Shown piece after piece: positions 3,658 through 45,372 of a DNA stretch of 64,000 bases. How positions within the stretch are numbered: position 1 is the first letter of the stretch; each line of letters starts with the position of its first letter. Where the stretch lies: positions 7,894-71,893 of the forward strand of contig CAZXOE010000004.1 of assembly GCA_964642305.1 (NCBI GenBank), written 5' to 3'. The DNA comes from an uncultured Candidatus Saccharibacteria bacterium. Lineage in GTDB: Bacteria; Patescibacteriota; Minisyncoccia; Phycocordibacterales; UBA1550. The notes beneath the pieces are model-generated. The model did no database searches. It saw only the letters and a program-made list of their open reading frames with translations, and was not told the DNA's origin. Position numbers and translations under genes: made by a program.

Positions 3658-3750
3658 TAAATGGTTAATTTTGGAGAGCAATGTTAGAGCGGGCGGTGTA
3701 AAATCCAGTTACCTAGAGTCATGCAGAGCCCATAAGGGTGGTGCGGCCGT
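3658..3750 (+). repeat. Copy A of a ~95-nt direct repeat flanking the peptidase gene
   Basis: Aligns to 4481-4578 with shared blocks ggttaatttt, gagagcaatg, tt.gagcg, taaaatc, tta.ctagag and cag.gccca.aag, roughly 70-75% identity. Confidence 0.6.
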
Positions 3751-4480: not shown

Positions 4481-4578
4481 AAATTGGTTAATTTTTGAGA
4501 GCAATGGTTGAGCGAGAAACATAAAATCTCTTTACTTAGAGCCTCACAGAAGCCCACAAGTGCATTGTGGGGCGGGTT
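4481..4578 (+). repeat. Copy B of the ~95-nt direct repeat
   Basis: See copy A. Copy B carries an internal hairpin cccacaa-gtgca-ttgtggg. Confidence 0.6.
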
Positions 4579-20849: not shown

Positions 20850-20991
20850 TTTAATTTAGAAAACTTATCGAGTGTGATGCCCCTCAAAATTTTTAATTTC
20901 AAATTATTAATTTTTAGATAATGTTCTAATTCTTTAATTTTAAAATTAGGAAATTAAGATTTATTTAAAAATTTGAAATTTGAAATTTTTA

Positions 20992-22452: not shown

Positions 22453-23097
22453 CTACTTCTCTGCTTCTGCGGGCGCCTCTTCCTCCTTCTTACCCTTCTT
22501 TTCTACTTCAATAGCTGAGAGATCCATCACTGGCGCTTCTATTGGCTCATCTTTTGCGACCGCGATTGCAGCAACGACATCTGTTCCGTGAGTAACAAGT
22601 GTGATTCCTTTTGGAAGAACGATGCTCTCTGCGAGAATCTGACTATCAAGCGCCTCAAGTGCTGAAATATCAATAACAAAATTGTGTGGAAGATTTTCTG
22701 GCTGACCCTTTACTTCAACTTCGTGAAGAACCTTTACAAGAGAGCCGCCAAGATCCTTTACGGCAACAGACACGCCAGTAAACTCAAGTGGGATGTTCAC
22801 CGAAACTTCCTGACCTTTTTCTAGAGCGTAAAAATCAACGTGGATTGGGTGACCTTTGATAGGATCAACCTGAACCTCGTGAATTAGCGCTGAAACCTTG
22901 CCTTTTGGCATTTCAAGAGTAACAACGGTTGACTCTCCTGCTGCCTTCCAAACCTTTTTAAAGGCAACTGCTGGAAAAACACACGGAGTAGCGGCCTCCT
23001 TGTGTCCATAATAAACCCCAGGAACAAAGCCCTCCGCGCGAATAGCTGAAAGTTTTGTCTTTGGATCCCTTATTTCTCCTTTTAGTGTGATATTCAT
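22453..23097 (-). CDS. rplY: Ribosomal protein L25 / general stress protein Ctc
   Basis: MNITLKGEIRD...GFVPGVYYG... L25/Ctc pattern with an acidic C-terminal tail. Confidence 0.85.
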   Translation of the reverse strand: MNITLKGEIRDPKTKLSAIRAEGFVPGVYYGHKEAATPCVFPAVAFKKVWKAAGESTVVTLEMPKGKVSALIHEVQVDPIKGHPIHVDFYALEKGQEVSVNIPLEFTGVSVAVKDLGGSLVKVLHEVEVKGQPENLPHNFVIDISALEALDSQILAESIVLPKGITLVTHGTDVVAAIAVAKDEPIEAPVMDLSAIEVEKKGKKEEEAPAEAEK

Positions 23098-23223
23098 CCC
23101 GTTAGAGGTAGGAAATTATTGAAATTTCCGTAGTTAACTAATAAATCGCTGATATTAATACCTTTATCCTAAATTCCCCGCCGGTTTCCCTTCCTAAACT
23201 ATGGGACCTCTAACGGGATTCAT
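23098..23223 (-). mobile_element. MITE-like element, copy 1 (11-bp TIR cccgttagagg/cctctaacggg), abutting the rplY start codon
   Basis: Shares the first 38 nt and last 16 nt with the 36496-36619 copy; the middle differs. Flanked by atgaat on both sides. Confidence 0.6.
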
Positions 23224-23364
23224 ATCGGGTAAGTATACGGATTTTCTAAATAAATGCAAATTTATTTACCCGCCAAACTTTTCCAATAAAGCACGGCTCG
23301 TCGAAAAAGAAAGAAAAAGTGCCACAAAAATTCATTTATCTGTTCAAACCATTTGGGAGAAAAG

Positions 23365-24240
23365 TTAGGCGGGCAAGCCTGAAAAGAGCCTCAACCGTGC
23401 CTCAATCACCTTTTGCATTGCTTCTGTTGGTTCTTTCATTATTTTATATGGAGCAACCTCGTCTGGGTGCGCTGTGAGGTACTCGGCGAGTGTTTTTACA
23501 AATGCAACGCGGATTTCTGTATTTATGTGAACAAGGCTAATCCCCGCTTTGATCGCCTCACGAAAATCCTCGTCACTCGTCCCTGAGCCACCGTGGAGAA
23601 CGAGAGGCACTCCTGAGGCAGCACGGAGCTTTGCAATACGCTCTATGTCCAACTTAGGAGACGCGTGTCCTCGAATCATACCGTGCATGTTTCCAACTGC
23701 GGGAGCAAATAAGTCTACTCCTGTTTCTCTTACAAAACGCTCTGCCTGTTCTGGCGTAGTCAAATTCTCTGGACCAACTCCCTCAGGAATCTCATCCATT
23801 ACTTTTGATGACGTGCCAATGTATCCCACTTCTGCTTCCACAAGGACATCTCTCCCTGATGTGCGCGCGTAGTCCACGCACTCTTTCGCCTTTGCGATAT
23901 TTTCTTCAAATGAAAGTTTCGCTCCGTCAAAAATTACCGCATCAAAACCAGCGTCAATTGCTTCTTTCACTCGCTCCACTGTATATGTGTGGTCCGCGTT
24001 TATAAAAATTGGATAGTTGTATTCCTCGCGGATACTTTTTACGAGTGCTACCGCCTGCTTCACTCCCACAAAGTCACGCTCTCCCTCTGAGAGTCCGACA
24101 ATGACCGGTAAATTGAGTGACTTTGCTGCGCGAAAAATGGCCCACAAAGCCTCAAGATTTGAAATATTAAAATGCCCAACCGCGATGTGCTTTAGCTCTG
24201 CGTCTGCGATAACCTCTCGTAATGTTGGAATGTTTGCCAT
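23365..24240 (-). CDS. fba: Class II fructose-bisphosphate aldolase
   Basis: IAVGHFNISNLE...GGSG... class II FBA family. Confidence 0.9.
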   Translation of the reverse strand: MANIPTLREVIADAELKHIAVGHFNISNLEALWAIFRAAKSLNLPVIVGLSEGERDFVGVKQAVALVKSIREEYNYPIFINADHTYTVERVKEAIDAGFDAVIFDGAKLSFEENIAKAKECVDYARTSGRDVLVEAEVGYIGTSSKVMDEIPEGVGPENLTTPEQAERFVRETGVDLFAPAVGNMHGMIRGHASPKLDIERIAKLRAASGVPLVLHGGSGTSDEDFREAIKAGISLVHINTEIRVAFVKTLAEYLTAHPDEVAPYKIMKEPTEAMQKVIEARLRLFSGLPA

Positions 24241-24249
24241 AAAATATAT

Positions 24250-24492
24250 TTAATTACCTTTTAAAATTGATGTGCCTGTTTCGTAGTTCGTCTTTACCCA
24301 CTCTATTTTCCCAAACACTGGCCCGAGTATACCGAGCACGATTGTCGCTATTATTGCTGAGCCAATAAAAAAGCCAATTCCATAGATTACGCCTGTAAGC
24401 AAGATGTTCTTGATAGAAATTTGCTTAGCAAGTTTTACGTTAAGCGCCTCAAGTTGCTCAATTATTTTGTCTCTCTGATTTTCTATTTCCAT
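24250..24492 (-). CDS. Hypothetical small membrane protein
   Basis: 80 aa with one TM. Confidence 0.4.
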   Translation of the reverse strand: MEIENQRDKIIEQLEALNVKLAKQISIKNILLTGVIYGIGFFIGSAIIATIVLGILGPVFGKIEWVKTNYETGTSILKGN

Positions 24493-24585
24493 ATAATTTA
24501 ATCAAAATTTGTCTAGTCGCCAGATGAATCCCCTCCTGACGAGCCATCCGACGAATCGCTTTACTGGTCATTCTTGATGTTTGTC

Positions 24586-24819
24586 TTACCTGTCCTGCGT
24601 TTCGTAAAAGTCATTAATCTTGTTTGCAACCTGATTTTTTGGCGCATTCGCTCCTTTTTTCTTGAATAGTTTGAATCCTAAAAAAATAACCAACGCTCCA
24701 GCTACTATTGCGCCCCCGTATAAATAAATATCTGTTCTATCCATCATTTTTACAAAACTTACTACCCGATAATATGAAAAGTATACCATATTAGGGAAAA
24801 TATATGATAGAATAGTCAC
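24586..24819 (-). CDS. Hypothetical small membrane protein
   Basis: One TM plus a basic tail. Start possibly at the internal MMDRTD. Confidence 0.35.
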   Translation of the reverse strand: MTILSYIFPNMVYFSYYRVVSFVKMMDRTDIYLYGGAIVAGALVIFLGFKLFKKKGANAPKNQVANKINDFYETQDR

Positions 24820-24822
24820 ATT

Positions 24823-25836
24823 ATGGAAAAATCAGATCAGTTGGATTTCGTGGGCATTGGCGACACAGTTGTTGATGCATTTATTAGACTTAAAGAGGAC
24901 CAGGCGCACACTTCAGTTTGTAAAATTGATGCAGGCGCGTCTGAGATTTGTATGCCATTTGGCGCAAAGGTTCCTTTTGACTTTGTCACGGTATGCTACG
25001 CAGTGGGCAACAGTGCAAACGCCTGTGTGTCTGCATCTCGTCTTGGACTCAAGAGCGCGCTTATCACCAATCTCGGTAATGATGACGACGGAAAGAAGTG
25101 CCTCGCATCTCTCAAGAATGACGGTGTAGGAACGCAGTTCATCAAGGAATACGACGGTATCAAGACGAACTACCACTACGTGCTCTGGTATGACAGTGAG
25201 CGCACGATTCTTATCAAGCACGAGGATTTTCCGTACACACTTCCGCTAGGAGATGTTGGTCCTCGCTGGCTCTACCTTTCATCTCTTAACGAAAAATCAC
25301 TAGCGTTCCACCACGAAATTGCAGAATATCTCGCAAAACACCCTGAAACAAAACTTTCCTTTCAGCCAGGTGGTTTCCAAATCAAACTCGGTGTCGAGGC
25401 TCTCAAGGACTTGTACGCGCATACGGAAGTATTTTTCTGCAACGTTGAAGAAGCTCGTCTAATTCTAAAAGACAAAGGCTCTGAGCCAAAGGATTTAGCA
25501 AAAAAAGTTGCAGAGCTCGGACCAAAAATTGTGGTAATCACCGACGGACCAAAGGGCGCGTATGTATTTGATGGCGTGGATTCATGGTTCATGCCAATCT
25601 ACCCAGACCCAGCGCCTCCATACGAGCGCACTGGCGCAGGAGATTCATTTGCGTCAGCATTCATTTCCGCCCTCGCTCTTGGCAAAACTCCAAGCGAAGC
25701 AATCACATGGGCGCCAATCAACTCCATGTCAGTAGTTCAAAAAGTCGGCGCGCAAGAAGGGCTTCTCACGCGCGAACAACTTGAAAAACTCCTCGCAGAG
25801 GCGCCAGAGGATTATAAGGCGGTGAAGTTGGACTAA
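24823..25836 (+). CDS. PfkB-family carbohydrate kinase
   Basis: GGxxxN region and C-terminal TGAGDSF motif. Confidence 0.8.
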   Translation: MEKSDQLDFVGIGDTVVDAFIRLKEDQAHTSVCKIDAGASEICMPFGAKVPFDFVTVCYAVGNSANACVSASRLGLKSALITNLGNDDDGKKCLASLKNDGVGTQFIKEYDGIKTNYHYVLWYDSERTILIKHEDFPYTLPLGDVGPRWLYLSSLNEKSLAFHHEIAEYLAKHPETKLSFQPGGFQIKLGVEALKDLYAHTEVFFCNVEEARLILKDKGSEPKDLAKKVAELGPKIVVITDGPKGAYVFDGVDSWFMPIYPDPAPPYERTGAGDSFASAFISALALGKTPSEAITWAPINSMSVVQKVGAQEGLLTREQLEKLLAEAPEDYKAVKLD

Positions 25837-25848
25837 ACAATAAGACCT

Positions 25849-25902
25849 AGCTCAGAAAAAATACCCAGCCATTCTAAAATGGCTGGGTATTTTTTCTGAG
25901 CT
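25849..25902. terminator. Bidirectional terminator (22-bp stem)
   Basis: agctcagaaaaaatacccagcc-attctaaaat-ggctgggtattttttctgagct. Confidence 0.8.
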
Positions 25903-25909
25903 ATGCCCC

Positions 25910-27592
25910 CTAGAACTGCCAGAAGCGAGTTTTTACTGCGCTAGCTGTACAATTCTGTTTATCATATGTTCCGCTACCACTAAGTACGCCCTCTGTACAC
26001 GTACGGCTTTGTGACACAGATGCGCAAGTTGCTGGAGATACCACTGAGGAAGCTTGATACGCAGTAACACTTTCTCCACTTGCGATGGTACCACCCCAAG
26101 GGAGATCGCAAGATGTGTCAACACTGCAAAAGGTGTATTGGTATGCCCCACTTAATGTTCCATTGGTACAGTTGCGTGTTTCAGACACTGAGACACAAGT
26201 GTTTGGTGAAGAAACTGAAGAAAATTGATATGCAGTGATATTACCGCCACTTGGAATGGTAGTTAATTCTAGTGTGCACGGGGCGGATATGCTTACACAA
26301 CTACTCCCATTCCAACTTGTTCCACCAACACAGCTCCCTCCCACTATTACCGACCTGAGTACCGTATTACTGTTTCTTGCATGTACAGTGTTCCAGCCAT
26401 TTGTGATTGCATAGGATAATCCAGTACCTGAAGCTAATGTTGAATATTGAATTGCTCTTGTTGCGTTGTAGATGTTTGGAGTTGTTGTATTAATTATGTT
26501 CCAAGTGAAGGGAATATTGCAAGTGCTTGCTCCCAATGCAATAACGCAAGTGCTTGGCGAAGCAGAAATGCTAGCTGTAGGAGAAGAGGATACTCTTATA
26601 AGACGCGTTGGCTGATTAGATGACCAGTTACTGTTTGAATCCTTCACTTGAAGATAAACATTCCAGTTACCAGCCGAAGGAAAATTTAGGGAAAAACTTG
26701 TCCCTGTATTTACTAATTGTGGAAAACCACCACCACTAGCTGGGTAACGACGCCAGGTATACTGTGTAATAGTATCTCCTACATCTGGGTCTATGCCATA
26801 CCCTGAAAAGGAAACCGAGTTCCCTGGCGCAACCACCACTGTAGAAGCTGGGTCTGTGATCACTGCTAATGGTGTACCATTATCAGAAATAACAACAGTA
26901 GCAGATGGGCAATTTGTAGACCATGTACCAGATGAGTCTCTCACGCGCAAATAAATAGTATGTGAGCCTACTGTAAAATTATTTTTTTGAAACGACATTG
27001 AGGAAGCCAGTATTGTACCGCTACTACAATTGCCCTCTCTCCACTCATACACATTAAGGCCATCTGATGAATTCCCACCTACTGCATTTCCACTAAAAAA
27101 AATATTTGAGCCACTTCCAAATACAGTAGGACCGACAGATGGAGTAAATATTGTTGCAGTAAGTGGAGTAACTGTAAAAGTTTGAACTGGGTAGCTTTCG
27201 ATATCAAAGAACCCAGAGGGCCAGCCGCCCCAAACCAAAACCTTAAACTGTATTGTGTAAATTCCTTGAGCAAGTGGCCCTATTGAAAATGAGTAGTTCT
27301 GCCCGCAACATGGGTGGGGGGGATCCATGTACCAGCTAGTTCCTCCAGCATTTCCTCCACCATCCAGTGAAAAAAGCTTATAAAAAATTACCATTTGACC
27401 TGCTTTGGCAACAGAATAATGCTTATGGATATCAATGACCCCCTCCACAAGGATTGACACACCAGGTGTAAATGTATTTCCTGAAAAGCTAGGGCTCATT
27501 GATTGAATCGCAGCTGCCTCTATATAATTAACAGAAGTAAAAAATATAACCGTTGTAAAAAAGAAAATTATTTGTAGTCGTTTTAGTGTCAT
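25910..27592 (-). CDS. Secreted Cys-rich repeat protein (surface/adhesin-like)
   Basis: Signal peptide. C-terminal tandem repeats G.I.(S/A)GESVTAYQ.SSV.SP.TC.SVS..R.CT.G.LSG. Confidence 0.55.
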   Translation of the reverse strand: MTLKRLQIIFFFTTVIFFTSVNYIEAAAIQSMSPSFSGNTFTPGVSILVEGVIDIHKHYSVAKAGQMVIFYKLFSLDGGGNAGGTSWYMDPPHPCCGQNYSFSIGPLAQGIYTIQFKVLVWGGWPSGFFDIESYPVQTFTVTPLTATIFTPSVGPTVFGSGSNIFFSGNAVGGNSSDGLNVYEWREGNCSSGTILASSMSFQKNNFTVGSHTIYLRVRDSSGTWSTNCPSATVVISDNGTPLAVITDPASTVVVAPGNSVSFSGYGIDPDVGDTITQYTWRRYPASGGGFPQLVNTGTSFSLNFPSAGNWNVYLQVKDSNSNWSSNQPTRLIRVSSSPTASISASPSTCVIALGASTCNIPFTWNIINTTTPNIYNATRAIQYSTLASGTGLSYAITNGWNTVHARNSNTVLRSVIVGGSCVGGTSWNGSSCVSISAPCTLELTTIPSGGNITAYQFSSVSSPNTCVSVSETRNCTNGTLSGAYQYTFCSVDTSCDLPWGGTIASGESVTAYQASSVVSPATCASVSQSRTCTEGVLSGSGTYDKQNCTASAVKTRFWQF

Positions 27593-27611
27593 TTAGGTGT
27601 TTTTAAATATT

Positions 27612-27974
27612 CTACTGGACTCTTGGTGGGAGTTTTTTAAAAATATCTTCCGCTTCTTCTTCTGTCAAAATTTTTGTCTCAACAACGTTTAACTCAGACT
27701 GAGCGGTAGTAGTCGCAATCCTTGCTGAATTAAAAAAGGTCTCACATCCAAGGCGGTACTGTTCATTGTTCAAAGTCTTGCAATCTGCTACGTTTCCATA
27801 TTTAAAAATTTCCTGAATTTGCATCTGAAGTAGTTGCTCATCTTCATTTGAAATCAACCCCGCACGAGAAACAGATTCTGACACACCCACCTTTTGCTTA
27901 TACACAGCAAAACCAACCACTCCAGTAATAACGAGAATACTGACGACAATGATTGTGAGTTTTTTATAATCCAT
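27612..27974 (-). CDS. Hypothetical membrane-anchored protein
   Basis: N-terminal TM, 120 aa. Confidence 0.5.
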   Translation of the reverse strand: MDYKKLTIIVVSILVITGVVGFAVYKQKVGVSESVSRAGLISNEDEQLLQMQIQEIFKYGNVADCKTLNNEQYRLGCETFFNSARIATTTAQSELNVVETKILTEEEAEDIFKKLPPRVQ

Positions 27975-27992
27975 CTATTTATTATGCCATAC

Positions 27993-29345
27993 TTACTTTG
28001 CAATTGGAAACGAAATTATAAAATCTGTCCCCTTCCCCTTGATAGATTCCACGGAGATTTTTCCATCCATATTTGAGACGATCTGAGCGACAATCCAGAG
28101 GCCTAACCCAGAGCCATTAATATCTTCTGTCTCTTTTGACTTCACGCGAAAGAACTTTCCAAATAGCTTTTGCTGATCCTCAGCAGAAATACCGATACCT
28201 GTATCTCGCACGCGCATAGAAACCATCTCGCCTGACACCTCGGCAAAAACTTTTACCGAACCTTCCGGAGTGTATTTTATTGAATTACCCATAATATTCA
28301 CTAGCACTTGGCGTAATTTTTCCTCGTCTACAAAGATTTTTGGAACATCATTTTTTTCATACGAAATCTCGAGACCTTTTTGACGAGCTACGACAGAAAA
28401 CGAATCTACAATTTCTGGAATAATAGATGAAATATCTATATTTTGTTTATTAAAGCTCATCTTCCCTTGCCCAATACGAATCACATCGAGCATATCATTA
28501 ATAAAAGCATTCAGCTGATTTATCGACACTGTGATGCGCGAGACATCTTCCTTGTCCTCTTCATTTAAATTTTTAGACTTGGCGAGCATCTCAGCATGTC
28601 CTTTTACAACGGTAAGCGGAGTACGGAGCTCATGTGCTGCCATAGAAATGAAATCGTCTTTCATTTGGTCAACTTCTTTGAGCTTCCGATAGAGCACAGT
28701 ATAGTCGATGATTTTTGCTTGACGTAAGAGCAAGAACGAAATTGCGAGTACTATAAAAAATAGAAAAGTATACGCGCTCTTTATGTTTTGCGTCGCCACC
28801 TCATCAATCACTTTCATGGAGATATCCATGAACACGATGCCGAGGATTGCTCCATTTTCCCCGTCTGGAATAGCGCGCACAACATTCCAATGTCTTTCGC
28901 CATATAGTGAAACAGGAAATATTTTTGATACATCGGTCCGCGCCCCAGCCTCTCTATAAAAAAACGCGTTCTCTTCATCATTGGTCCCTATTTCACTTTT
29001 ATCCAGAGAGGCAATGACCTTTTGTTGTGCTCCCTCAAATACCACTACTTTAAACTCACTAATCGATTCTTTGTTCTGATCCTTTATTCTCTCGATGATA
29101 CTTTGCAATGATGACGGGTCGTTAATTTTGAGAGTAGCAAGCTCAATAAAAATATCTTGCATTACTCCGACACGCTCCTTTTCGAGACGTTCCTGATTTT
29201 CCTTGGCAACTGATAGAAATTTTTGTCCGCTTGCAATAAACGCAAGTGGGATGAAGACGACCAAAAAGATCGTGTAGATGATCTGAGGATTATTTTTTAC
29301 GAATAATAATCCTTTTGAAAAATAGTCAGCGAGATCCTTGAGCAT
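27993..29345 (-). CDS. Sensor histidine kinase
   Basis: HisKA H-box MAAHELRTPL and HATPase_c (DTGIGI, GSGLGLWIV) after two TM segments. No adjacent response regulator. Confidence 0.85.
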   Translation of the reverse strand: MLKDLADYFSKGLLFVKNNPQIIYTIFLVVFIPLAFIASGQKFLSVAKENQERLEKERVGVMQDIFIELATLKINDPSSLQSIIERIKDQNKESISEFKVVVFEGAQQKVIASLDKSEIGTNDEENAFFYREAGARTDVSKIFPVSLYGERHWNVVRAIPDGENGAILGIVFMDISMKVIDEVATQNIKSAYTFLFFIVLAISFLLLRQAKIIDYTVLYRKLKEVDQMKDDFISMAAHELRTPLTVVKGHAEMLAKSKNLNEEDKEDVSRITVSINQLNAFINDMLDVIRIGQGKMSFNKQNIDISSIIPEIVDSFSVVARQKGLEISYEKNDVPKIFVDEEKLRQVLVNIMGNSIKYTPEGSVKVFAEVSGEMVSMRVRDTGIGISAEDQQKLFGKFFRVKSKETEDINGSGLGLWIVAQIVSNMDGKISVESIKGKGTDFIISFPIAK

Positions 29346-29360
29346 TTTTGTTAATGTGTA

Positions 29361-30923
29361 TTATTCCTGTGGAGTATTCCTCATTTTAAAACCAAGCAGA
29401 ATAAAGATTGTAATCACAATGAGTATGATCGCAATGATGCTTCCGTAAAAATACTCATCCTCGACGAAGCTCGGGGAACTGCCGGCATCCGGGACTATTT
29501 GAGGAACGGTGATAGCGAATGCTTCCTTTACGAACGGCACAGGGTTACTTCTCGCAACCACACTCCCCTTCACATCCGTAATAGCCACGAACACTTTGTG
29601 ATCACCATTCTCAAGCTCTTTGTCGAGTATGTAACTCCAATTTCCATCGTTGTCGGTCTTTACTGTAACAACAATAGGCATGCTAAAAATATAGAGTGTT
29701 GCAAAACTGTTTGGGAGAGCCTTTCCTTTAAATGAAATCTTGCTTGCTGTCTTTGTACCATCAGTATTAGTAACAATCTCAGCAACAGCGACCGCCTCAA
29801 CTGCGAAGTTTTTCTCGTCAACAATCCCGCTTTGCTGTTCTATCGCCACCTGCTCAAGTTTTGCGACCCCTTCTTCAATCTTTTTCGCTAGAGCATCCTC
29901 TTCTGCAATATTTTCAGGTTTATTATTCTCTACTGCTAATGAGACGTCGCTTTGTACTCTCCGCGTAGTATCCACGATTTCTTTGACGATCTCTTTCTTT
30001 TTGTCATCATCACCTCTCTTTACGGCGTCCTTGAGATCCTCTGCTTTCTCGGCAACTACCTTTTCAAAATCAGGTGATGGCTTTTGTGGCTGTACAGAAA
30101 CTTTGCGAGTGTCACTAATGGCGTCTGTCTTCGTGGACGCTGGTTCAACCACAATACTTTTCACTACTTTTTTCCTTTCTTTATTTTCTGAAAATGTTTT
30201 TAGAGTATTTGTTATCTCTTTTTTTATTTTCTCCTCTTTTACTATCTGCGTACTCTTGATATCTTCAACAAATTTTTCAGCGATAAATTGTCGAGAAACT
30301 TCTCGCACTCCACTATTACCAATATTGGGTGCATCTTTGGTATTTATCCATTTTTTCTCTTCATTATTCACAACAACTTGAACACTGTCTCCATGAAACA
30401 CCTCACCATCTTGCTTTGTAATCAACGTAGTTAACTCATAGGAACCATCTGGTGTGTTCTCTGACTTCCAGGAAACAACTCCATGTATTTCATTTGAATC
30501 AAAATGCGTTTTCCCGATATATAGTGAATCACCTCCATCCTTCCGTGTCAGGTTTACCTCTACAGCAGATACTTTTTCTTCTTTTTCAACTTTTACTGAT
30601 ACTTTTGTGTCACCTGACACCTTATCACTATGCTCCTTATCTTTGTCATCATTCATGACATCTTTAGACTCAGTTTGCTTGTGTGAAGAAGATACGCTAG
30701 TTTGCGACGATGCCTTTTTTTCTTTTGTCTTCTTTTCTGACAAAGAAGACGTCTCAGCTACTAAAACTCCTGAAGTGGTTGCCACAGCGCCAAATGCATT
30801 TCCCATAGTTGGCATCTCTGATAATTCCGCAAATACCGAATGGGCTCCAAAACCTAGCAAACCTGCGAGGAGCGTCACGCCAACTATTTTTTTAAAACTG
30901 CTCCCGCTATTAAAATAATCCAT
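29361..30923 (-). CDS. Secreted Lys/Ser-rich protein with C-terminal TM anchor
   Basis: Signal peptide, low-complexity K/E/S-rich centre, C-terminal hydrophobic helix. Confidence 0.5.
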   Translation of the reverse strand: MDYFNSGSSFKKIVGVTLLAGLLGFGAHSVFAELSEMPTMGNAFGAVATTSGVLVAETSSLSEKKTKEKKASSQTSVSSSHKQTESKDVMNDDKDKEHSDKVSGDTKVSVKVEKEEKVSAVEVNLTRKDGGDSLYIGKTHFDSNEIHGVVSWKSENTPDGSYELTTLITKQDGEVFHGDSVQVVVNNEEKKWINTKDAPNIGNSGVREVSRQFIAEKFVEDIKSTQIVKEEKIKKEITNTLKTFSENKERKKVVKSIVVEPASTKTDAISDTRKVSVQPQKPSPDFEKVVAEKAEDLKDAVKRGDDDKKKEIVKEIVDTTRRVQSDVSLAVENNKPENIAEEDALAKKIEEGVAKLEQVAIEQQSGIVDEKNFAVEAVAVAEIVTNTDGTKTASKISFKGKALPNSFATLYIFSMPIVVTVKTDNDGNWSYILDKELENGDHKVFVAITDVKGSVVARSNPVPFVKEAFAITVPQIVPDAGSSPSFVEDEYFYGSIIAIILIVITIFILLGFKMRNTPQE

Positions 30924-31000
30924 ATTAAAATATATATTTTTTTATTAAATAAGCCCACTGTCTGGCTTGCCGACAAAACTTTTAGCGTATAACGCAGTTA

Positions 31001-31975
31001 TTATATCACATTCCGCACGGCCTCCTTAATATGACCAATACCCATACCATAATGTTCCAAAAGTTCGGCGGGTGAACCTGATTGCCCGAACAAATCCTTT
31101 ACTCCGATGAATGCCATCTTTGTTGGATGTTCTTCCGCAAGAATTTCAGCAACAGCCGAGCCCATGCCTCCAGCGATTTGGTGCTCCTCTACTGTAACAA
31201 TTCTTCCACACTCTTTTGCGAGGGCAACCACCGCTTCGCGATCCATCGGCTTCACGGTTCCAATATTTAAAACAACAGAACCAATTCCCTCACCTTCAAG
31301 CTCTTTTCCTGCCATTATCGCATTGTAAACAAGCGAACCGCACGCAATGATACCGACTTTTGGCGCAGTTACCGAGCGAAAAAATTCTTGCGCTTTGCCA
31401 ATTTCGAACGGCGTATCTTCGGTCGTAATAATAGGAGTTTTTTCACGAGCGAGACGAATATACGTCGGAGAATTTGTTTTTGCCATTGCGATGGTTGCCT
31501 TTCGCGCTTCAATGCTATCGCAAGGCGTAATCACTACCATATTTGGAATGACGCGTGTAATGGCAATATCCTCTATCGCCTGATGTGTACCGCCGTCAGG
31601 ACCCACGGAAACTCCAGCGTGCGAGCCAACAATTTTCACGGGGCGGTCATTGTAACAAATGTTTGTGCGAATCTGCTCCCAGCTTCTCCCTGGAGAAAAC
31701 ATCGCGTACGATGAAACGAAAGGAATCTTGCCCATCGCTGCCATTCCCGAAGCAACTGACGCAGATGACTGCTCCATGATCCCCATTTCAAAAAATCGTT
31801 TTGGAAACTCTTTTGCGAATGCGTCCATCTTTGTGGACTCTGTAAGGTCGCAACACATCGCCACCACGCGCTCGTCCGCGCGCCCAGCAAGCACGAGCCC
31901 CTCGCCAAAGCCCGCGCGAATCGGCGCTTGTTGTACATCAGTATCAAATAGTTTTGGATTGAGAGAAATTTGCAT
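31001..31975 (-). CDS. Transketolase, C-terminal (pyrimidine-binding) subunit
   Basis: ...MGIMEQSSASVASGMA...GPDGGTHQAIEDIA... covers Tkt domains II and III. Confidence 0.9.
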   Translation of the reverse strand: MQISLNPKLFDTDVQQAPIRAGFGEGLVLAGRADERVVAMCCDLTESTKMDAFAKEFPKRFFEMGIMEQSSASVASGMAAMGKIPFVSSYAMFSPGRSWEQIRTNICYNDRPVKIVGSHAGVSVGPDGGTHQAIEDIAITRVIPNMVVITPCDSIEARKATIAMAKTNSPTYIRLAREKTPIITTEDTPFEIGKAQEFFRSVTAPKVGIIACGSLVYNAIMAGKELEGEGIGSVVLNIGTVKPMDREAVVALAKECGRIVTVEEHQIAGGMGSAVAEILAEEHPTKMAFIGVKDLFGQSGSPAELLEHYGMGIGHIKEAVRNVI

Positions 31976-31979
31976 GATT

Positions 31980-32252
31980 CTATTTTACCGTTAATCGCAG
32001 CCCAAGACCAGTAGTAACTTTTTGAATGAACGAAAATGTAGGGTTCCCGCGCCCAGACTCAAAGCGAGCGAGGGCTGATTGTGTAATACCGATTTCTGCA
32101 GCAAGCGCTTTTTGTGTAAGGTTTTTCTGTGCGCGCTTTTTTATAATCGCCTCAATAAGGTCAAACTCGACATCGGACTCCGCCATTGCCTTTTTGACTC
32201 CAGGGCGTTTCATGGACTCCTTTTTAAATTGTGCAAATGTTTTCATTTTCAT
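31980..32252 (-). CDS. HTH XRE-family antitoxin (HigA-like)
   Basis: LTQKALAAEIGITQSALARFESGRGNPT HTH, directly downstream of the toxin-like gene. Confidence 0.7.
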   Translation of the reverse strand: MKMKTFAQFKKESMKRPGVKKAMAESDVEFDLIEAIIKKRAQKNLTQKALAAEIGITQSALARFESGRGNPTFSFIQKVTTGLGLRLTVK

Positions 32253-32279
32253 AATATTATGTATACCATATATGGTATA

Positions 32280-32588
32280 TTATTGCAACTTGTTTTTCAA
32301 ACGATATACATAATCAATATCCTTTTGTGAGAGTTTTTGTGTCTTTTTTATGATTGCGTGCAATATAATCGCTTCTCCGTTTTTAAAAATGAAAAATATC
32401 CTTATATTACTTATGCCAATCACTCGCAGTTCAAAAATCCCCTCAGAAATATATTTTGTATGCGGATAACGAATTGTGTGACCATATTCCTCTAAAAGCC
32501 CGACTGACTTATTTATTTTTCCCACAGAAACATCATCAAGACCATAAAGAAAGTCGTATGTCTCTGAAAAAAGAAAATTGATTTTCAT
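32280..32588 (-). CDS. HigB/Gp49-like toxin (RelE/ParE superfamily)
   Basis: ...YDFLYGLDD...KI...GLLEEYG...ISEGIFELRV...RIFFIF..G.AIILHAIIKKTQKLSQKDIDYV matches the Gp49/HigB pattern. Start taken at MKINFLF. Confidence 0.65.
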   Translation of the reverse strand: MKINFLFSETYDFLYGLDDVSVGKINKSVGLLEEYGHTIRYPHTKYISEGIFELRVIGISNIRIFFIFKNGEAIILHAIIKKTQKLSQKDIDYVYRLKNKLQ

Positions 32589-32642
32589 ATTACTACACTT
32601 TGCCAAAGCCCGCTGCGTCCAAGACGTGAATCTTCTGATGTT

Positions 32643-32732
32643 TATGGCCAAGCCACGAAATCAGCTGATTCGGAATCGGCGCTTGCTCTATAGTTGGGTC
32701 TATGGCCGAGCCACGAACCAGCTGATTCGAAA
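32643..32732. promoter_or_regulatory. Two ~33-nt direct repeats, each with a CAGCTG-centred palindrome, upstream of the toxin gene (candidate operator)
   Basis: tatggccaagccacgaaatcagctgattcggaa and tatggccgagccacgaaccagctgattcgaaa, with a 58-nt period. Confidence 0.55.
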
Positions 32733-32759
32733 GTTTTGGATTGAGTTGAATGTTCATAT

Positions 32760-33026
32760 TTACTGCGAGTATTTACTACGATTATATAGAAAATATACAA
32801 TGCTCACAATAATCCCCAACAAAAGGGCTTGTCCTCCCCTTACGAAAATAAACACATAACCATCATCTTTAAAAAGATTTACTCCTCCAAAAAGAATGAC
32901 AATGGTTGCAAAGAAAATCATAGCGCCCATTGGGAAAATGACAGTCGTCATAAAAAAGACTTTTCTAATTTTTTTGTTTGTCTCCTCGTTTTGTTGTGAT
33001 GTGTTTTTTTGATTCATACTATTCAT
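32760..33026 (-). CDS. Hypothetical small membrane protein
   Basis: 88 aa, two TM helices. Overlaps the tkt N-subunit stop by 8 nt. Confidence 0.4.
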   Translation of the reverse strand: MNSMNQKNTSQQNEETNKKIRKVFFMTTVIFPMGAMIFFATIVILFGGVNLFKDDGYVFIFVRGGQALLLGIIVSIVYFLYNRSKYSQ

Positions 33027-33888
33027 GCTCGCTCATAATCTGCCCTCCGAGAGTGCGGAGCTCTGCGAGCGCATTATCTCCCTGCTCCACATTTGGTGGA
33101 TTGCCATGCCACTTGTAGTCGTTCTCAAACATTTCTACGCCTTTGCCGGGAATAGTGTGCGCAATGATGACGGACGGCTTTTCAAAAATCGCGCGCGCCG
33201 TATCCACTGCATCCACAATAGCCTCCATATTGTGCCCGTCAATCTCAAGCACATGCCAGCCAAATGCTCTCCACTTATCCGCAAGCGGTTCCAACGGCAT
33301 TACGTTTTCTGTGAATCCATCAATTTGAATATTGTTGCGGTCTACAATGGCGACAAGGTTGTGAAGTTTCTCTTTTCCTGCAAGCATCGCCGCTTCCCAA
33401 ATCTGCCCTTCGTTCAACTCTCCATCACCCAAGAAACAATAAACTGTTCTGTTTGAATTGTGTCCCCTATCTAATCGGTCTACTATTGCCATACCAACCG
33501 CTTGCGAAAGTCCCTGCCCGAGTGGACCGGAGCTTGTCTCAAGCATTGGCAAATATTCGCGGTGTGGATGCCCCTGAAGTCGTGTTCCAAATTTGCGAAG
33601 CGTTTTTAATTCTTCAATAGGGAAATACCCTACATGTGCCATCGTCGCATACATGACTGGGCAAATGTGTCCGTTTGAAAGCACCACGCGGTCACGGTCT
33701 TCCCACGAAGGGTTCTTTGGGTCGTGTTTTAATATATGAAAATAGAACGCAGTAAAAATATCCGCCATACCAAGTGGCCCCGCGGTGTGACCAGACTTTG
33801 CTTCTACAAGCATCTCAATAATAGACTTGCGAACTTCAAGCGCTTTCTCTTCTAGAAATTTAATTTTGTCATCATGGAGATGAGTCAT
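33019..33888 (-). CDS. Transketolase, N-terminal (TPP-binding) subunit
   Basis: ...SGHTAGPLGMADI...GDGELNEGQIWEA... covers Tkt domain I. Confidence 0.9.
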   Translation of the reverse strand: MTHLHDDKIKFLEEKALEVRKSIIEMLVEAKSGHTAGPLGMADIFTAFYFHILKHDPKNPSWEDRDRVVLSNGHICPVMYATMAHVGYFPIEELKTLRKFGTRLQGHPHREYLPMLETSSGPLGQGLSQAVGMAIVDRLDRGHNSNRTVYCFLGDGELNEGQIWEAAMLAGKEKLHNLVAIVDRNNIQIDGFTENVMPLEPLADKWRAFGWHVLEIDGHNMEAIVDAVDTARAIFEKPSVIIAHTIPGKGVEMFENDYKWHGNPPNVEQGDNALAELRTLGGQIMSEHE

Positions 33889-33892
33889 AAGA

Positions 33893-34600
33893 CTATGATA
33901 CTAAATTTTTCATTTCTGCGATAGCAGAAACAAAGTCATCTGCTTCCAAAATTGCTGATCCAGAGACCAAGCGTGTCGCGCCAGCGTCTACAAGACTTCG
34001 CGCTGTATCCATATTGACAGAGCCGTCAATACTAATTGGCAGTTCAGGATATTTTGCGCGGAGCGCTCGCACATGATCAAGCACGCGCTCATCAAAGGGT
34101 TGCCCTTGAAACCCTATACGCTCGATACCCATACACTGCACAAAATCAACTTGATCAAGGTACGGCTCTATAGACGATAGCGGTGTTGTCGTATTGAGAG
34201 CAATTCCGAGTTCTATAAAGCCATCTGGGATAGCGTCGCGAATAGCGTTAAAATCACTCACACTTTCAACATGAACAATGATACGCTGCGCTCCTGCGGT
34301 GACCCATTGTGAGATGACATCCTCAGGATTCTCCACCATCAGATCAACTTCAAAATCAATATCTTCCCACAATGGCATTCCCTCTTCCTCTGCAACGATA
34401 GCGTCGAAATGAGCATCCTTTGGATACGGCCATGTACGAGCAGGCACAAATTTCCCATCCATAATATCTAGCTGAACCATTGGAACCACACCCACAAAAA
34501 GGCTCATCATCTCATCAAGATGCTCGTAGTCTTTTGGCATTATTGCAGGGATGATTTCGATCATGGGATTTAATGTTAAATGATAAATTTTAAATTTCAA
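33893..34600 (-). CDS. rpe: Ribulose-phosphate 3-epimerase-like
   Basis: QLDIMDGKFVP and DGSVN motifs on a TIM-barrel scaffold. Confidence 0.75.
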   Translation of the reverse strand: MKFKIYHLTLNPMIEIIPAIMPKDYEHLDEMMSLFVGVVPMVQLDIMDGKFVPARTWPYPKDAHFDAIVAEEEGMPLWEDIDFEVDLMVENPEDVISQWVTAGAQRIIVHVESVSDFNAIRDAIPDGFIELGIALNTTTPLSSIEPYLDQVDFVQCMGIERIGFQGQPFDERVLDHVRALRAKYPELPISIDGSVNMDTARSLVDAGATRLVSGSAILEADDFVSAIAEMKNLVS

Positions 34601-34674
34601 AATAAATCTTAATTTTTATAATTTTTAATTCATTTTTAGATTATTTAGAAATTAAAAATTTGAAATTAGAAATT

Positions 34675-35118
34675 TTAAAAAATGTCTAATTTTTTAATTC
34701 TCCTCTCATGGCGCTCGTCGCCAGTAAATTTAGTCTCAAGCCACACACGCACAACCTCGCGGGCTTCATCTTCTTCAATAAATCGCGCACCGAGAGAAAG
34801 TATATTCGCGTCATTATGCTCGCGCGAGAGTACCGCAACATCAAAGGGTCCACCGTAGTAAACCGCCGCTCGCGCGCCTTTCACACGGTTTGCGCACATT
34901 GCCTCGCCTTGCCCTGAACCGCCAAGAATAATTCCACGTGACTCTGGGTCACGAGCAACCGCCTCTGCAACAGGGCGAATAAAATCTGGATAATCATCAA
35001 GCGGTTCAAGCGAATGCGCGCCCATGTCTTCTATATCGTGTCCGTGCGCGCGAAGAAATGGAAGGAGGTTTTCCTTGAGCTCAAACCCAGCGTGATCTGT
35101 ACCGATGTAAATTTTCAT
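34675..35118 (-). CDS. rpiB: Ribose-5-phosphate isomerase B
   Basis: MKIYIGTDHAGFELK...ILGGSGQGEAM... RpiB/LacAB family. Confidence 0.9.
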   Translation of the reverse strand: MKIYIGTDHAGFELKENLLPFLRAHGHDIEDMGAHSLEPLDDYPDFIRPVAEAVARDPESRGIILGGSGQGEAMCANRVKGARAAVYYGGPFDVAVLSREHNDANILSLGARFIEEDEAREVVRVWLETKFTGDERHERRIKKLDIF

Positions 35119-35139
35119 ACTTAATTTATTACTACAATA

Positions 35140-35442
35140 TTATTTCTGTCCTTTTAGAATTATCCTTTCTTCAAAACCCCCTCTCTCTTCTCGCTTCCTA
35201 TCTCGAATTTTTTCAACATTCTCATATTCAGGAAGTTTTTTAATGGCCTCAATGACTTCAAGGACATCAGCAAGCTCTTCAGTATCTCCTTCCACTAAAA
35301 ATTCCTGAGTTTCCTCCCCGAGCTTCTTTATAAGTTCAGCTCTATACTCTTCTGCAGAGGCAATTCGTTTTTCATACAAAACTCCCTTCTGGTCAAGAAT
35401 TTCAGGAATTTTATCTCTAACTAATTTATTATAATCTTCCAT
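35140..35442 (-). CDS. MazG-like nucleotide pyrophosphohydrolase domain protein
   Basis: LVRDKIPEI...EEYRAELIKKLGEETQEF... resembles the MazG/HisE-like all-alpha NTP-PPase fold. Confidence 0.55.
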   Translation of the reverse strand: MEDYNKLVRDKIPEILDQKGVLYEKRIASAEEYRAELIKKLGEETQEFLVEGDTEELADVLEVIEAIKKLPEYENVEKIRDRKREERGGFEERIILKGQK

Positions 35443-35451
35443 GAATTTTAA

Positions 35452-36495
35452 TTAGAGGAAGCTCGCCACCTTAACCACGTGCTTCACAAGCGTATTCGTG
35501 TACCCCATTTCGTTATCGTACCATGCCATCACTTTCACTAGGTTGCCGTCTACTACACGCGTAAGGTCGAGGTCGGCAATAGAACCATAAAGTTCGCCGA
35601 CAATATCAGAAGAAACAATAGGCTCTTCGCTTACTTTAAAAATACCCTGCCAACGAGAATCGCGCGCAGCGTCGCGAAGAATTTGATTCACCTCCTCTAC
35701 GCTCGTATTTCTTTTTGCGATGAATGTCACATCGGCAATAGAGCCCGCAATGACCGGCACGCGGATAGAGATGCCATCAAACTTCCCTTTGAGATCCTGA
35801 ACCACTTCCGTCACTGAGATCGCAGCACCTGTTGAAGCTGGGACCATATTTGCAGCGCCTGCGCGCCCACCACGAAGGTCCTTTCCTCCAGGCCCGTCAA
35901 CAATCCTTTGAGTACCAGTGTATGCGTGCGTGGTATTCAAGATCGCCTTTTCAATTCCAATCGTCTCATTCAAAATGCAAACTACTGGACTAGCTGCGTT
36001 TGTGGTGCATGATGCATTTGATGAAATTTTTGCGCCAGAGAGCTTGTCGTCATTGATACCCATGAGAGCGGTAATACATGGAACCTCGGGAAGTGCTTCG
36101 CCTTTCATTGGCGCAGTGATCACCACACGCTTTGCGCCCTGTGTGAGATGCACATTTGCTTTTTCTGGGCTTGTAAAAAACCCTGTTGATTCAACCACGA
36201 TATCAATGTCGTACTTTGCCCAAGGGAGATTGGTTGGCTCTTTTTCCTGCACGAGAATTACTTTTTTACCATCCACAATAAAGCCAGGCTCCTCGCCACT
36301 CCCTGGTGCAACTACTGTCACATCAAAATCCGCCTTGCCGTAAGCTGTGTCGTACTTGAGAAGGTACGCCATGTTCTCTGGGTCTCCAAGGTCATTCACG
36401 GCAACAATCTCGAGCTCTGGCTGTGTCCTTGCCAATTTATAAAACGCGCGTCCAATGCGCCCAAACCCGTTAATTGCTACTCGTACTTTTTTCAT
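35452..36495 (-). CDS. gap: Glyceraldehyde-3-phosphate dehydrogenase
   Basis: VAINGFGRIGR...SNASCTTNA... Confidence 0.95.
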   Translation of the reverse strand: MKKVRVAINGFGRIGRAFYKLARTQPELEIVAVNDLGDPENMAYLLKYDTAYGKADFDVTVVAPGSGEEPGFIVDGKKVILVQEKEPTNLPWAKYDIDIVVESTGFFTSPEKANVHLTQGAKRVVITAPMKGEALPEVPCITALMGINDDKLSGAKISSNASCTTNAASPVVCILNETIGIEKAILNTTHAYTGTQRIVDGPGGKDLRGGRAGAANMVPASTGAAISVTEVVQDLKGKFDGISIRVPVIAGSIADVTFIAKRNTSVEEVNQILRDAARDSRWQGIFKVSEEPIVSSDIVGELYGSIADLDLTRVVDGNLVKVMAWYDNEMGYTNTLVKHVVKVASFL

Positions 36496-36619
36496 CCCGT
36501 TAGAGATAGGAAATTATTAAATTTCCGTATCATAATTATATTAAACTGCTAATAATAGTAATATCAGTATAACCTATTGACCACAGAAACATAACTGAGT
36601 TATCTCTAACGGGATTCAT
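36496..36619 (-). mobile_element. MITE-like element, copy 2 (TIR cccgttagaga/tctctaacggg), abutting the gap start codon
   Basis: Same ends as copy 1. Begins on the nucleotide right after the gap ATG, in the 5' UTR position. Confidence 0.6.
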
Positions 36620-41748: not shown

Positions 41749-41880
41749 GGCGCAATCATTTAATTTTTTTGAGCCGTAAGTCGCGCCTCAACGGACACTG
41801 CGCGACCCGATTTTGCAAAATCGACGGTGAATAAAAATTATATGATTGCAACGAAGTAGCCGAGGATGAGTGGTGGGTTG

Positions 41881-45217: not shown

Positions 45218-45372
45218 TCCTCAGAGCGAGCTGAATTATTTTTTAGGGGGTTTTGAGCGCGACGGCGCGAGAACTTCTGATTCCGCAGAATCACGTCGCG
45301 CAGTGTCCTTTGAAGCGCGACGCTTTAAGCTTCAAAAAAGTCGTACCCTAAAAAGAATTTAGCGAGCGGTTT

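Follow-up and report, generated by a model that had tools for sequence, protein, structure and literature searches.

Correia/NEMIS elements of Neisseria, ERIC sequences of enterobacteria, and RUP elements of pneumococci are noncoding MITEs (miniature inverted-repeat transposable elements) of ~100 to 150 nucleotides (nt) that occur in many copies at varied distances from genes, duplicate a TA target, and are presumed to have DDE-type partners; they are transcribed together with adjacent genes, and their repeats form a long stem in the RNA; the Correia/NEMIS elements have ~26-bp inverted repeats, and the stem in their transcripts is cleaved by RNase III. Rickettsia palindromic elements insert in frame within open reading frames (ORFs), are translated as part of the protein, and have no known enzyme partner. 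IS200/IS605 elements with PATE, and REP/REPIN sequences with RAYT, rely on HUH tyrosine (Y1) transposases and show neither terminal inverted repeats nor a target duplication. Free-standing GIY-YIG homing endonuclease genes (T4 seg genes and relatives of I-TevI) encode proteins with an extra DNA-binding domain, propagate through the repair of breaks, and lack inverted termini, a duplication, and MITE-like derivatives. The UPF0213 proteins BH0048 and EF2693 are structural-genomics proteins without an assigned function, and we know of no account of UPF0213 proteins that makes them components of mobile elements. Here, we describe two ~120-nt elements inserted at the start codons of rplY and gap in a 64-kb stretch (41% G+C) of contig CAZXOE010000004.1, from an uncultured Candidatus Saccharibacteria bacterium, together with longer relatives that encode a GIY-YIG nuclease. 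The whole stretch is called the window below.

The window elements resemble Correia, ERIC, and RUP in size, inverted repeats, target duplication, and multiple copies, and co-transcription and an mRNA stem are predicted for them. They differ in their (A)TGNN duplication, their 10- to 14-bp repeats, their near-universal abutment to start codons, and their GIY-YIG coding relative. Like the Rickettsia elements, they are small palindromic mobile DNA tolerated in or at essential genes of a reduced genome; unlike them, they stand before a host ORF that is left intact. The longer relatives share with GIY-YIG homing genes a selfish nuclease gene wedged between host genes and relying on host expression signals, but they encode the catalytic domain alone (84 amino acids [aa]) and have inverted termini and a duplication. 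Their nuclease is similar to BH0048 and EF2693 in sequence and in its single-domain size. A very small size, a structure-conserved subterminal hairpin on one strand, a short specific target, and nonautonomous derivatives recall IS200/IS605, PATE, and REP/REPIN, whereas the inverted termini and the duplication do not, and no HUH gene is associated with the termini. Integron attC sites (RYYYAAC...GTTRRRY, 3' of cassette ORFs) were considered and rejected, as the order is reversed here (GTTAGAG 5', CTCTAAC 3') and the copies are scattered before housekeeping genes. No description of a start-codon GIY-YIG element family was found in Rfam or in a full-text literature search that left most subscription journals outside it, and these mini-elements apparently constitute a large, undescribed family of the Candidate Phyla Radiation (CPR).

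One window copy directly precedes rplY (ribosomal protein L25/Ctc) and the other gap (GAPDH), both genes being on the minus strand. On the plus strand, copy 1 reads CAT (23095-23097), CCCGTTAGAG (23098-23107), the interior, CTCTAACGGG (23208-23217), and ATTCAT (23218-23223), and copy 2 reads CAT (36493-36495), CCCGTTAGAG (36496-36505), the interior, CTCTAACGGG (36604-36613), and ATTCAT (36614-36619). In gene sense, both follow the order ATGAAT, CCCGTTAGAG, ~100 nt, ACGGAAATTT(C)AATAATTTCC, TAY, CTCTAACGGG, and ATGAA(T/A), so that the 3' part runs ACGGAAATTT(C)AATAATTTCCTAYCTCTAACGGG into ATGAA(T/A). The original prediction, made from the letters of the window, had described this pair at these positions, and the shared ends of 16 nt and ~38 nt, the 7-bp hairpin, and the flanking ATGAA(T) that it listed are all present. 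The copies are arranged as it described, but the strings it quoted belong to the antisense strand of the two genes. The four arms of the two copies are the only exact occurrences of CCCGTTAGAG in the 64 kb, where ~0.1 occurrences of an exact 10-mer on both strands would be expected by simple arithmetic; no degenerate further copies were found in the window. The CCCGTTAGAG/CTCTAACGGG inverted repeat is perfect in both copies and reaches 12 to 14 bp when flanking bases are included. Because the interiors are only loosely alike, the copies were assigned to different subfamilies, AGAGGT (copy 1) and AGAGAT (copy 2). Rfam gave no gathering-score match over the elements and, at E ≤ 10, only chance-level matches of ≤15 bits.

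Close relatives lack both insertions. The rplY site is empty in six syntenic relatives (L030, L031, L153, L154, L155, and L156; loci other than the window are given by L numbers), whose L25 proteins are 87 to 95% identical to that of the window (90 to 95% for L153 to L156), and the gap site is empty in three (L030, L031, and L032). In all of these, the upstream sequence runs straight into the ATG, with a single ATGAA. At rplY, L155 has TTGCATttatctaggaaatccgTATACTaacccgat/ATGAATATCACA where the window has TATACTtacccgatATGAAT-120 nt-ATGAATATCACA, and L030 has ttgctttttcctttaaaatccgTATACTagcccaat/ATGAATATCACA where the window has ttgcatttatttagaaaatccgTATACTtacccgatATGAAT-120 nt-ATGAATATCACA; at gap, L030 has atagttttaatcaatttaaccaccacaaaa/ATGAAAAAGACA and the window atagttttaaccatttaaccaccataacagATGAAT-118 nt-ATGAAAAAAGTA. 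As the junctions of close relatives are uninterrupted at both sites, both window copies are recent insertions that duplicated (A)TGAA. The gap leader of the relatives appears to be ~36 nt long, as read from the alignment, and the insertion point would thus be the start codon and not the transcript start. The best database matches of the window L25 are Candidatus Yonathbacteria-like (Paceibacteria, CPR).

Two scans of sequence collections, both demanding exact termini, located further copies. A pattern of 19 specified bases from the gene-proximal end, run against 185,579 species-representative genomes, matched 27 loci, with two to four matches in several genomes; all loci with a named taxon belong to Patescibacteria/CPR (Yonath-, Zambryski-, Taylor-, and Nomurabacteria, Paceibacterota, and Minisyncoccia). 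A pattern of only the two termini, 80 to 110 nt apart, found at least 120 metagenome stretches carrying both, and zero matches to two patterns were seen in viral contigs. Across the genome loci and the window, 30/30 main-family copies have one end, and only one, directly against the ATG of an ORF (99 to 901 aa, or truncated where the contig stops). The same holds, with an ATG and ORF at exactly one end, for 100 of 119 unique copies (~84%) among the metagenome matches listed. The host genes are functionally unrelated and include rpsB, rpsH, rplY, gap, pyk, pgi, glyA, murC, tyrS, and smc, as well as genes for xerC-like, pilB, dsbA-like, FKBP, patatin, plsC, and prepilin peptidase products and others. 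Many orthologous host genes bear elements in different genomes, and since those at murC, rpsB, dsbA-like, and other orthologues differ in subfamily or orientation, they point to independent insertions.

The repeat that flanks the elements follows the host gene. It covaries with the first codons (ATGAA, ATGGA, ATGTA, ATGAG, ATGCG, or ATGGG), and in the 100 start-codon copies among the metagenome matches listed, it measures 5 nt in 65, 4 nt in 8, 6 nt in 1, and 8 nt in 1, being mutated or absent in the remaining 25. In the same 100 copies, the hairpin lies adjacent to the gene in 66 and distal to it in 14, and 20 are ambiguous. A T precedes CCCG and an A follows CGGG in every copy, so that a parse into 11-nt termini and a 4-nt TGNN duplication would be equally valid; the non-ATG sites in L066 and L049 favor it. 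An AGAGAA subfamily (L048:361-472, L093:7843-7953, L103:1137-1248, L049, and L066) has the same 10-nt termini around another interior and sits at ATAAA/TTTAT in promoter-like intergenic DNA, not at start codons. Tandem elements occupy a single start codon in L082:4905-5021, L100:6844-7242 (a full-length element, then a MITE), L102:1835-1950, L135:1170-1287, and L148:4659-4783, where the regenerated ATGNN appears to have been hit again. The many copies elsewhere and the empty sites put the window pair beyond chance, and of the two origins that the original prediction had offered, the small nonautonomous transposon with inverted repeats and a 5- to 6-bp ATGAA duplication is borne out by the empty sites, the covarying duplication, and the occurrence of both orientations.

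Inspection of unpaired termini in L100 revealed a GIY-YIG ORF directly after a 5' terminus. A complete element of 273 nt lies at L119:23-295 (TAAAATacaattatctgt/CCCGTTAGAGATattttATGTTTTAT...GGCGCTTCCTATCTCTAACGGG/ATGAAAAAACAA), and full-length elements with the same termini around a GIY-YIG ORF are present in L119, L100, L161, L170, and L157. In these, (T)CCCGTTAGAG...CTCTAACGGG(A) encloses one ORF of 83 to 84 codons, which encodes a single catalytic GIY-YIG domain; the 83-aa product in L119 matches PF01541 with E = 1e-16 over profile positions 1 to 71 of 78. The ORF ends, as TCC TAT CTC TAA, inside the 3' terminus, with its stop 4 nt before the host ATG, and in L161, L170, and L157, the host gene begins 4 to 5 nt past that stop. 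L161 reads TACAAT, 6 nt, ATGGAT, the element, and ATGGAA; the distal ATG of L170 is in frame with the nuclease; and L157 is without the ATG repeat. L184 has an empty site relative to L161 (aaaaaaatcatTACAATactatag/ATGGAAATTCTAGAG; host proteins 83% identical), so that full-length elements and MITEs share one mode of insertion. The elements at L157:1501-1752 and L170:1201-1479 stand in front of VirB4/TraG-like and VirD4-like genes in type IV secretion/conjugation clusters, a possible way of spreading from genome to genome.

The window copies match the full-length elements over their first 14 to 21 nt and last 20 to 23 nt and, third, at TTACGGAA, ~91 nt from the 5' end in both. Minimum-energy folds of 5/5 full-length elements pair the termini (P1) and pair CGGAAGCGCC (codons L-R-K-R-L) with GGCGCUUCC (codons G-A-S) near the 3' end (P3); L100 has compensatory changes on both P3 arms (GGAAACGCTTCAA/TTGAAGCGTTCC). 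The MITE hairpin, preceded by a conserved UAC, is the P3 of the parent minus the ~165 nt between its arms. In many MITEs, a GTTATG close to the 5' end represents the start codon of the nuclease. The mini-ORF of the gap copy (MNPVRDNSVMF..) equals the N terminus of nuclease forms that are read in frame, MDPVRDQSVMFYTY being one example. The idea of a small conserved peptide (MNPVRD..GY..LI) was rejected, as a nuclease N-terminal remnant and conserved DNA explain it. The two copies have the marks of MITEs: lengths of 120 and 118 nt, mini-ORFs only, inverted repeats, a duplication with empty sites, and many dispersed copies. As full-length relatives carry the nuclease ORF between the same termini, we conclude, with a probability of roughly 0.8, that the window copies are nonautonomous deletion derivatives (MITEs) of a GIY-YIG mini-element family abundant in Patescibacteria. 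The hairpin speaks for this account as well: counted as a perfect stem scoring ≥6 and adjoining a terminus, it is present at the gene-proximal end in 57% of copies but at the distal end in 16%, with shuffles giving 7%, and 57 such hairpins had 42 distinct stem sequences; the wobble-pair excess and the covariation given below belong with this evidence.

A database search with the nuclease returned 2,636 homologues, the best mostly 80 to 99% identical and the named ones from Patescibacteria; plasmid and phage collections held only distant homologues (≤46% identical). The best 120 of the 2,636 all end in SYL or SYF (109 in GASYL), residues encoded by the terminus, and 16 of these 120 start M(D/N/S/G)PVRD, which is the duplicated start codon and the 5' terminus read in frame. 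Terminus-encoded ends (MNPVRD.., ..SLTG, and ..SYL) recur in the wider family of 6,941 clusters at 50% identity (E < 1e-3), and the nearest solved proteins are BH0048 (PDB 1zg2, E = 3.5e-7) and EF2693 (PDB 1ywl, E = 2.3e-4). Distant paralogues of the nuclease found in the loci are bounded by other inverted termini, which likewise take in the first and last codons of the ORF and adjoin the host ATG, such as CCCGCTAAAGTTTTTACTAA/TTAGTAAAAATTTTCTCGGG-TAA/ATG in L022 and a 19-nt perfect terminal pair in L116. Because diverged paralogues have their own matching termini, enzyme and termini appear to have evolved together. Neither a DDE nor an HUH gene was found in association with the termini when long-range terminus pairs and lone arms were examined in ~1.1 Mb of CPR loci. 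With the ORF built into the termini, this coevolution, and no other candidate, we lean toward the GIY-YIG protein as the mobilizing enzyme, acting in trans on the MITEs; nuclease from full-length copies elsewhere in the genome would move those of the window.

Integration occurs in the first bases of the host ORF and duplicates (A)TGNN. The copy of the start codon that comes to lie upstream keeps the promoter and initiation signals of the host and opens a frame into the element (M-N-P-V-R-...), which in some elements is that of the nuclease. The second copy, after the 3' terminus, starts the intact host ORF. No promoter-like site was found inside either window copy by consensus scan, and when 66 forward copies were aligned on the hairpin, no fixed −10 signal was seen upstream of it (≤0.3 bit from −12 to −7), only the UAC directly before the stem being conserved. 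The element, apparently without a promoter of its own, would be transcribed from that of the host. In the mRNA, the termini are predicted to form a stem of 14 to 15 bp, with the start-codon A and U of the host gene paired at its base (z = −2.6 and −4.0), in line with the stem against the start codon that the original prediction had proposed. Ribosomes starting at the distal AUG would read M-N-P-V-R through the 5' arm and unwind this stem, and in full-length and read-through copies, they would terminate 0 to 4 nt from the host AUG. Host translation might in this way stay coupled to the original initiation signals, a tentative model that would explain how insertions in essential genes are tolerated. 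The chances seem even that these are prokaryotic transposable elements of a new class and, at ~270 bp, perhaps the smallest that are autonomous. Such an element would encode a lone 84-aa GIY-YIG protein from terminus to terminus, integrate at start codons, borrow the host promoter and start codon for its expression, and return ribosomes via a stop 4 nt before the regenerated ATG, and its MITEs would have remodeled the 5' ends of many essential genes across Patescibacteria.

Several points weigh against this account. We know of no GIY-YIG enzyme that acts in transposition, the fold being that of a hydrolytic nuclease, nor, to our knowledge, is a 4- to 5-bp duplication a product of characterized GIY-YIG nucleases; the protein also has no separate DNA-binding domain. 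The window contains no nuclease gene, and trans-mobilization in this organism is therefore an assumption. Since the scans required exact termini, their conservation across copies is partly built into the sample. A few copies lie at non-ATG sites, one of which duplicated ACCCG. The 65 reconstructed targets show only ATG-R-R, which does not account for the restriction to start codons: the window has 53 ATGs at gene starts, 172 at intergenic nonstart positions, and 1,906 within genes, so that ATG is ~3 times commoner at intergenic nonstart positions than at gene starts, yet main-family copies in either orientation are nearly all at real start codons. All statements at the RNA level are predictions from sequence. 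Read-through mini-ORFs count in favor of coupling: in 23 of 94 copies, where ~8% would be expected, the mini-ORF stays open across the whole MITE as far as the terminus UAA or the UGA of AUGA, and of 22 copies that by their length would join the mini-ORF to the host protein, none is open. The excess is modest, however, given 10 to 18 of 94 in antisense frames, and it is inflated by shared ancestry among copies. The window mini-ORFs end early, after 9 and 27 codons, and therefore termination beside the host AUG cannot apply to them; only the stem-unwinding version could.

Candidate explanations for the start-codon preference were tried and rejected. An extra target motif is not seen in the reconstructed sites, and targeting of promoter open complexes at leaderless genes is not supported, as a −10 box is present at 49% of targets against a background of 47%. 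The bias may reflect retention, expression-dependent propagation, or a targeting mechanism invisible in DNA. In the retention variant, an element caught between the promoter and the body of an essential gene could not be lost by deletion.

Among the alternatives, the one that survives best, although we consider it unlikely, is that the ends and hairpin are kept as a host RNA leader for translational control at the start codon, mobility being only their origin. The bias of 66 to 14 toward a gene-adjacent hairpin fits this alternative, as does an excess on the gene-sense strand of G.T over A.C wobble pairs (13 to 2, or an estimated ~9 to 2 without related copies). Covariation points the same way: in 115 unselected 3' ends, the five outer pairs were paired in 66.3% of cases versus 51.2 ± 1.5% in shuffles, and the covariation score was 0.398 versus 0.206, reached by 0 of 500 shuffles and lower in every slid register. 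RNAalifold gave no consensus on these ends because stem lengths and orientations are mixed. Old orthologous insertions in L064/L146 (host proteins 69.5% identical) and L040/L117 (80.5%) keep their termini, extended stem, and hairpin while their interiors are unalignable, with a compensatory A-U to G-C change in the hairpin of L040/L117. Against selection of this kind, both window copies are very recent, leaving no time for it here, and start codons are occupied by copies in reverse orientation too. That the 10-nt termini do not covary but are invariant fits protein-DNA recognition better than a plain helix, and concerted evolution among copies could imitate such constraint.

Homing is improbable as the means of spread. 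Here, the nuclease would cut element-free alleles, repair would copy the element, and new sites would be reached rarely through ATGAA microhomology, the duplication being a by-product of recombination. The nearest annotated relatives of the nuclease are indeed homing or intron endonucleases, elements recur at many orthologous genes, and in ~6 copies the flanking ATG is followed by mismatched bases. However, the bases that are duplicated are those of the target gene (A, G, T, or C at position 4; A or G at position 5) and not of the donor, non-ATG duplications exist (ACCCG and ATAAA), and the elements at orthologous genes, often of different subfamilies or orientations, represent independent insertions. 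Nor does homing call for inverted termini or a duplication.

A conventional MITE moved by a DDE-type transposase, an enzyme type that leaves 4- to 6-bp duplications, with the GIY-YIG ORF as cargo or a captured gene, is also quite improbable. Inverted termini, a short and variable duplication (4 to 8 nt), and insertion in both orientations are hallmarks of cut-and-paste DDE elements, and GIY-YIG enzymes are not known to carry out transposition chemistry. On the other hand, a DDE insertion sequence has its transposase between the same repeats, and in the ~1.1 Mb of CPR loci, the sole terminus pair more than 260 nt apart is the 273-nt GIY-YIG element; the longer relative with the shared termini has as its only ORF the nuclease, a putative mobilizer. 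The use of the termini as first and last codons by the best 120 of the 2,636 homologues, and the matching termini of diverged lineages, argue for enzyme-end coevolution and against cargo.

That the short copies are merely full-length elements decayed in place, and so immobile, is very improbable: they keep the nuclease start codon and both P3 arms at the same distance from the 5' end, but one and the same pattern of deletion, with similar interiors, is seen again at unrelated genes and in different genomes (the gap copy resembles those in L024, L005, L014, and L019), ~14% of copies are reverse oriented, and the rplY copy is absent where L25 is 93 to 95% identical, which leaves no time for decay. 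The other origin offered by the original prediction, an ordinary promoter or 5'-untranslated-region module (or an alternative-sigma promoter) common to both genes, has in its favor the shared 38-nt block directly before two highly expressed genes and can be dismissed, as orthologous upstream regions lack the block, the hairpin stem sequence varies freely, no internal promoter-like site or positional −10 exists, and the downstream genes are functionally unrelated. Two specific promoters were likewise rejected: an internal sigma-70 promoter with its transcript start at the hairpin, plausible in the first 27 loci, for want of a positional −10, and an extracytoplasmic-function sigma type (GGAAATT-N15/16-TCTAA), as GGAAATT is a hairpin arm of freely varying sequence.

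Should the nuclease prove to be the mobilizer, a GIY-YIG nuclease fold would be added to the few enzyme types known to power transposons in bacteria, and this in an element hardly longer than the MITEs derived from it. Some of the small GIY-YIG proteins that make up the large UPF0213 family would gain a possible function. Mobile DNA would lie almost exclusively in the first bases of genes, including the essential gap, pyk, pgi, rpsB, rpsH, murC, tyrS, glyA, and smc, raising the testable question of how start codons are recognized or favored and how the host genes continue to be expressed. This would also bear on gene calling and translation biology in CPR, where gene callers emit nuclease ORFs with spurious MNPVRD extensions. 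A nuclease of 84 aa that recognizes a defined end of 11 nt could in that case also have practical value. Coordinates of the window features are given in Table 1.

Table 1. Positions of the two window copies, their parts, and their host genes.
Feature	Position	Strand	Remarks
MITE copy 1 (120 nt, AGAGGT subfamily), directly upstream of rplY	23098..23217	-	Absent in six relatives
Copy 1 distal ATGAAT	23218..23223	-	Duplicated start ATGAA (23223-23219) plus T; its ATG opens a 9-codon mini-ORF (MNPVRGPIV, then stop) to about 23194
Copy 1 proximal duplication	23093..23097	-	First 5 nt (ATGAA) of rplY
Copy 1 5' terminal inverted repeat (sense)	23208..23217	-	CCCGTTAGAG
Copy 1 3' terminal inverted repeat (sense)	23098..23107	-	CTCTAACGGG; holds the UAA that is the nuclease stop in full-length elements
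Copy 1 subterminal hairpin GGAAATT/AATTTCC	23111..23129	-	7-bp stem adjoining the gene-proximal terminus; equivalent of the long-range stem P3 of full-length elements, collapsed
Host sigma-70-like promoter TTTGCA-17-TATACT	23232..23260	-	8 nt before the distal ATG of copy 1; orthologous to the leaderless rplY promoter of relatives, displaced by the insertion
rplY (L25/Ctc, 214 aa), host gene of copy 1	22453..23097	-	
MITE copy 2 (118 nt, AGAGAT subfamily), directly upstream of gap	36496..36613	-	Absent in L030, L031, and L032
Copy 2 distal ATGAAT	36614..36619	-	Duplicated ATGAA plus T; its ATG opens a 27-codon mini-ORF (MNPVRDNSVMF...) to about 36536
Copy 2 proximal duplication	36491..36495	-	First 5 nt (ATGAA) of gap
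Copy 2 5' terminal inverted repeat (sense)	36604..36613	-	
Copy 2 3' terminal inverted repeat (sense)	36496..36505	-	
Copy 2 subterminal hairpin	36509..36526	-	
gap (GAPDH, 347 aa), host gene of copy 2	35452..36495	-	

Some MITEs in other loci contain further small elements. At L005:3307-3359, L008:434-485, and L009 (~4334-4390), the hairpin loop of a MITE contains a nested mini-element of ~58 nt, the termini of which (CCCGTTAGAAGCCGCGAG..GCTTCTAACGGG) are related. A second nested insert of ~57 nt (CCCGCCCACTTTCGCC...GGCGGGTGGG) follows the 5' terminus in L009, L013:6084-6260, L015:4365-4533, and L027:4509-4687, and MITEs that carry it reach 169 to 179 nt. Solo terminus hairpins of ~30 nt are found in L149, near 317 and 3342. 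A variant at L004:1126-1233 (CCCATTAGAAG...CTTCTAACGGG) does not abut an ATG; it starts 4 nt past a strong promoter (TTGACA-17-TATAAT) and might give rise to a small RNA.

Most genes in the window have no Shine-Dalgarno sequence (e.g., those at 6628, 20376, 24823, 27974, and 54060). A TAnnnT box ends 4 to 12 nt before the ATG in 24 of its 51 ATG genes, which suggests that leaderless mRNAs are widespread in the source organism. Between gatB and gap, relatives carry differing toxin-antitoxin pairs (RelB/YafQ and HicA; L030:2698-3232) and the window carries none, so that this spot is variable.

The window also contains unrelated repeats. Inverted repeats of 43 nt (84% complementary) at 41780-41822 and 45279-45321 bracket a 3.4-kb segment with genes for a 2-hydroxyacid dehydrogenase and a family-2 glycosyltransferase and a 258-aa ORF; an IS21-like element was rejected here, as the bracketed genes are ordinary metabolic ones. 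Direct repeats of 69 nt (74% identical) at 3659-3727 and 4482-4550 bracket a pyroglutamyl-peptidase ORF (3801-4457). Two AT-rich intergenic repeats of ~100 nt (20886-20989 and 34578-34676) are mutually inverted (75 to 79%), the first being internally palindromic. Finally, a perfect 37-nt inverted repeat with a 76-nt spacer (10782-10818/10895-10931) lies at the 3' end of lepA and is far longer than the usual terminators of the window.

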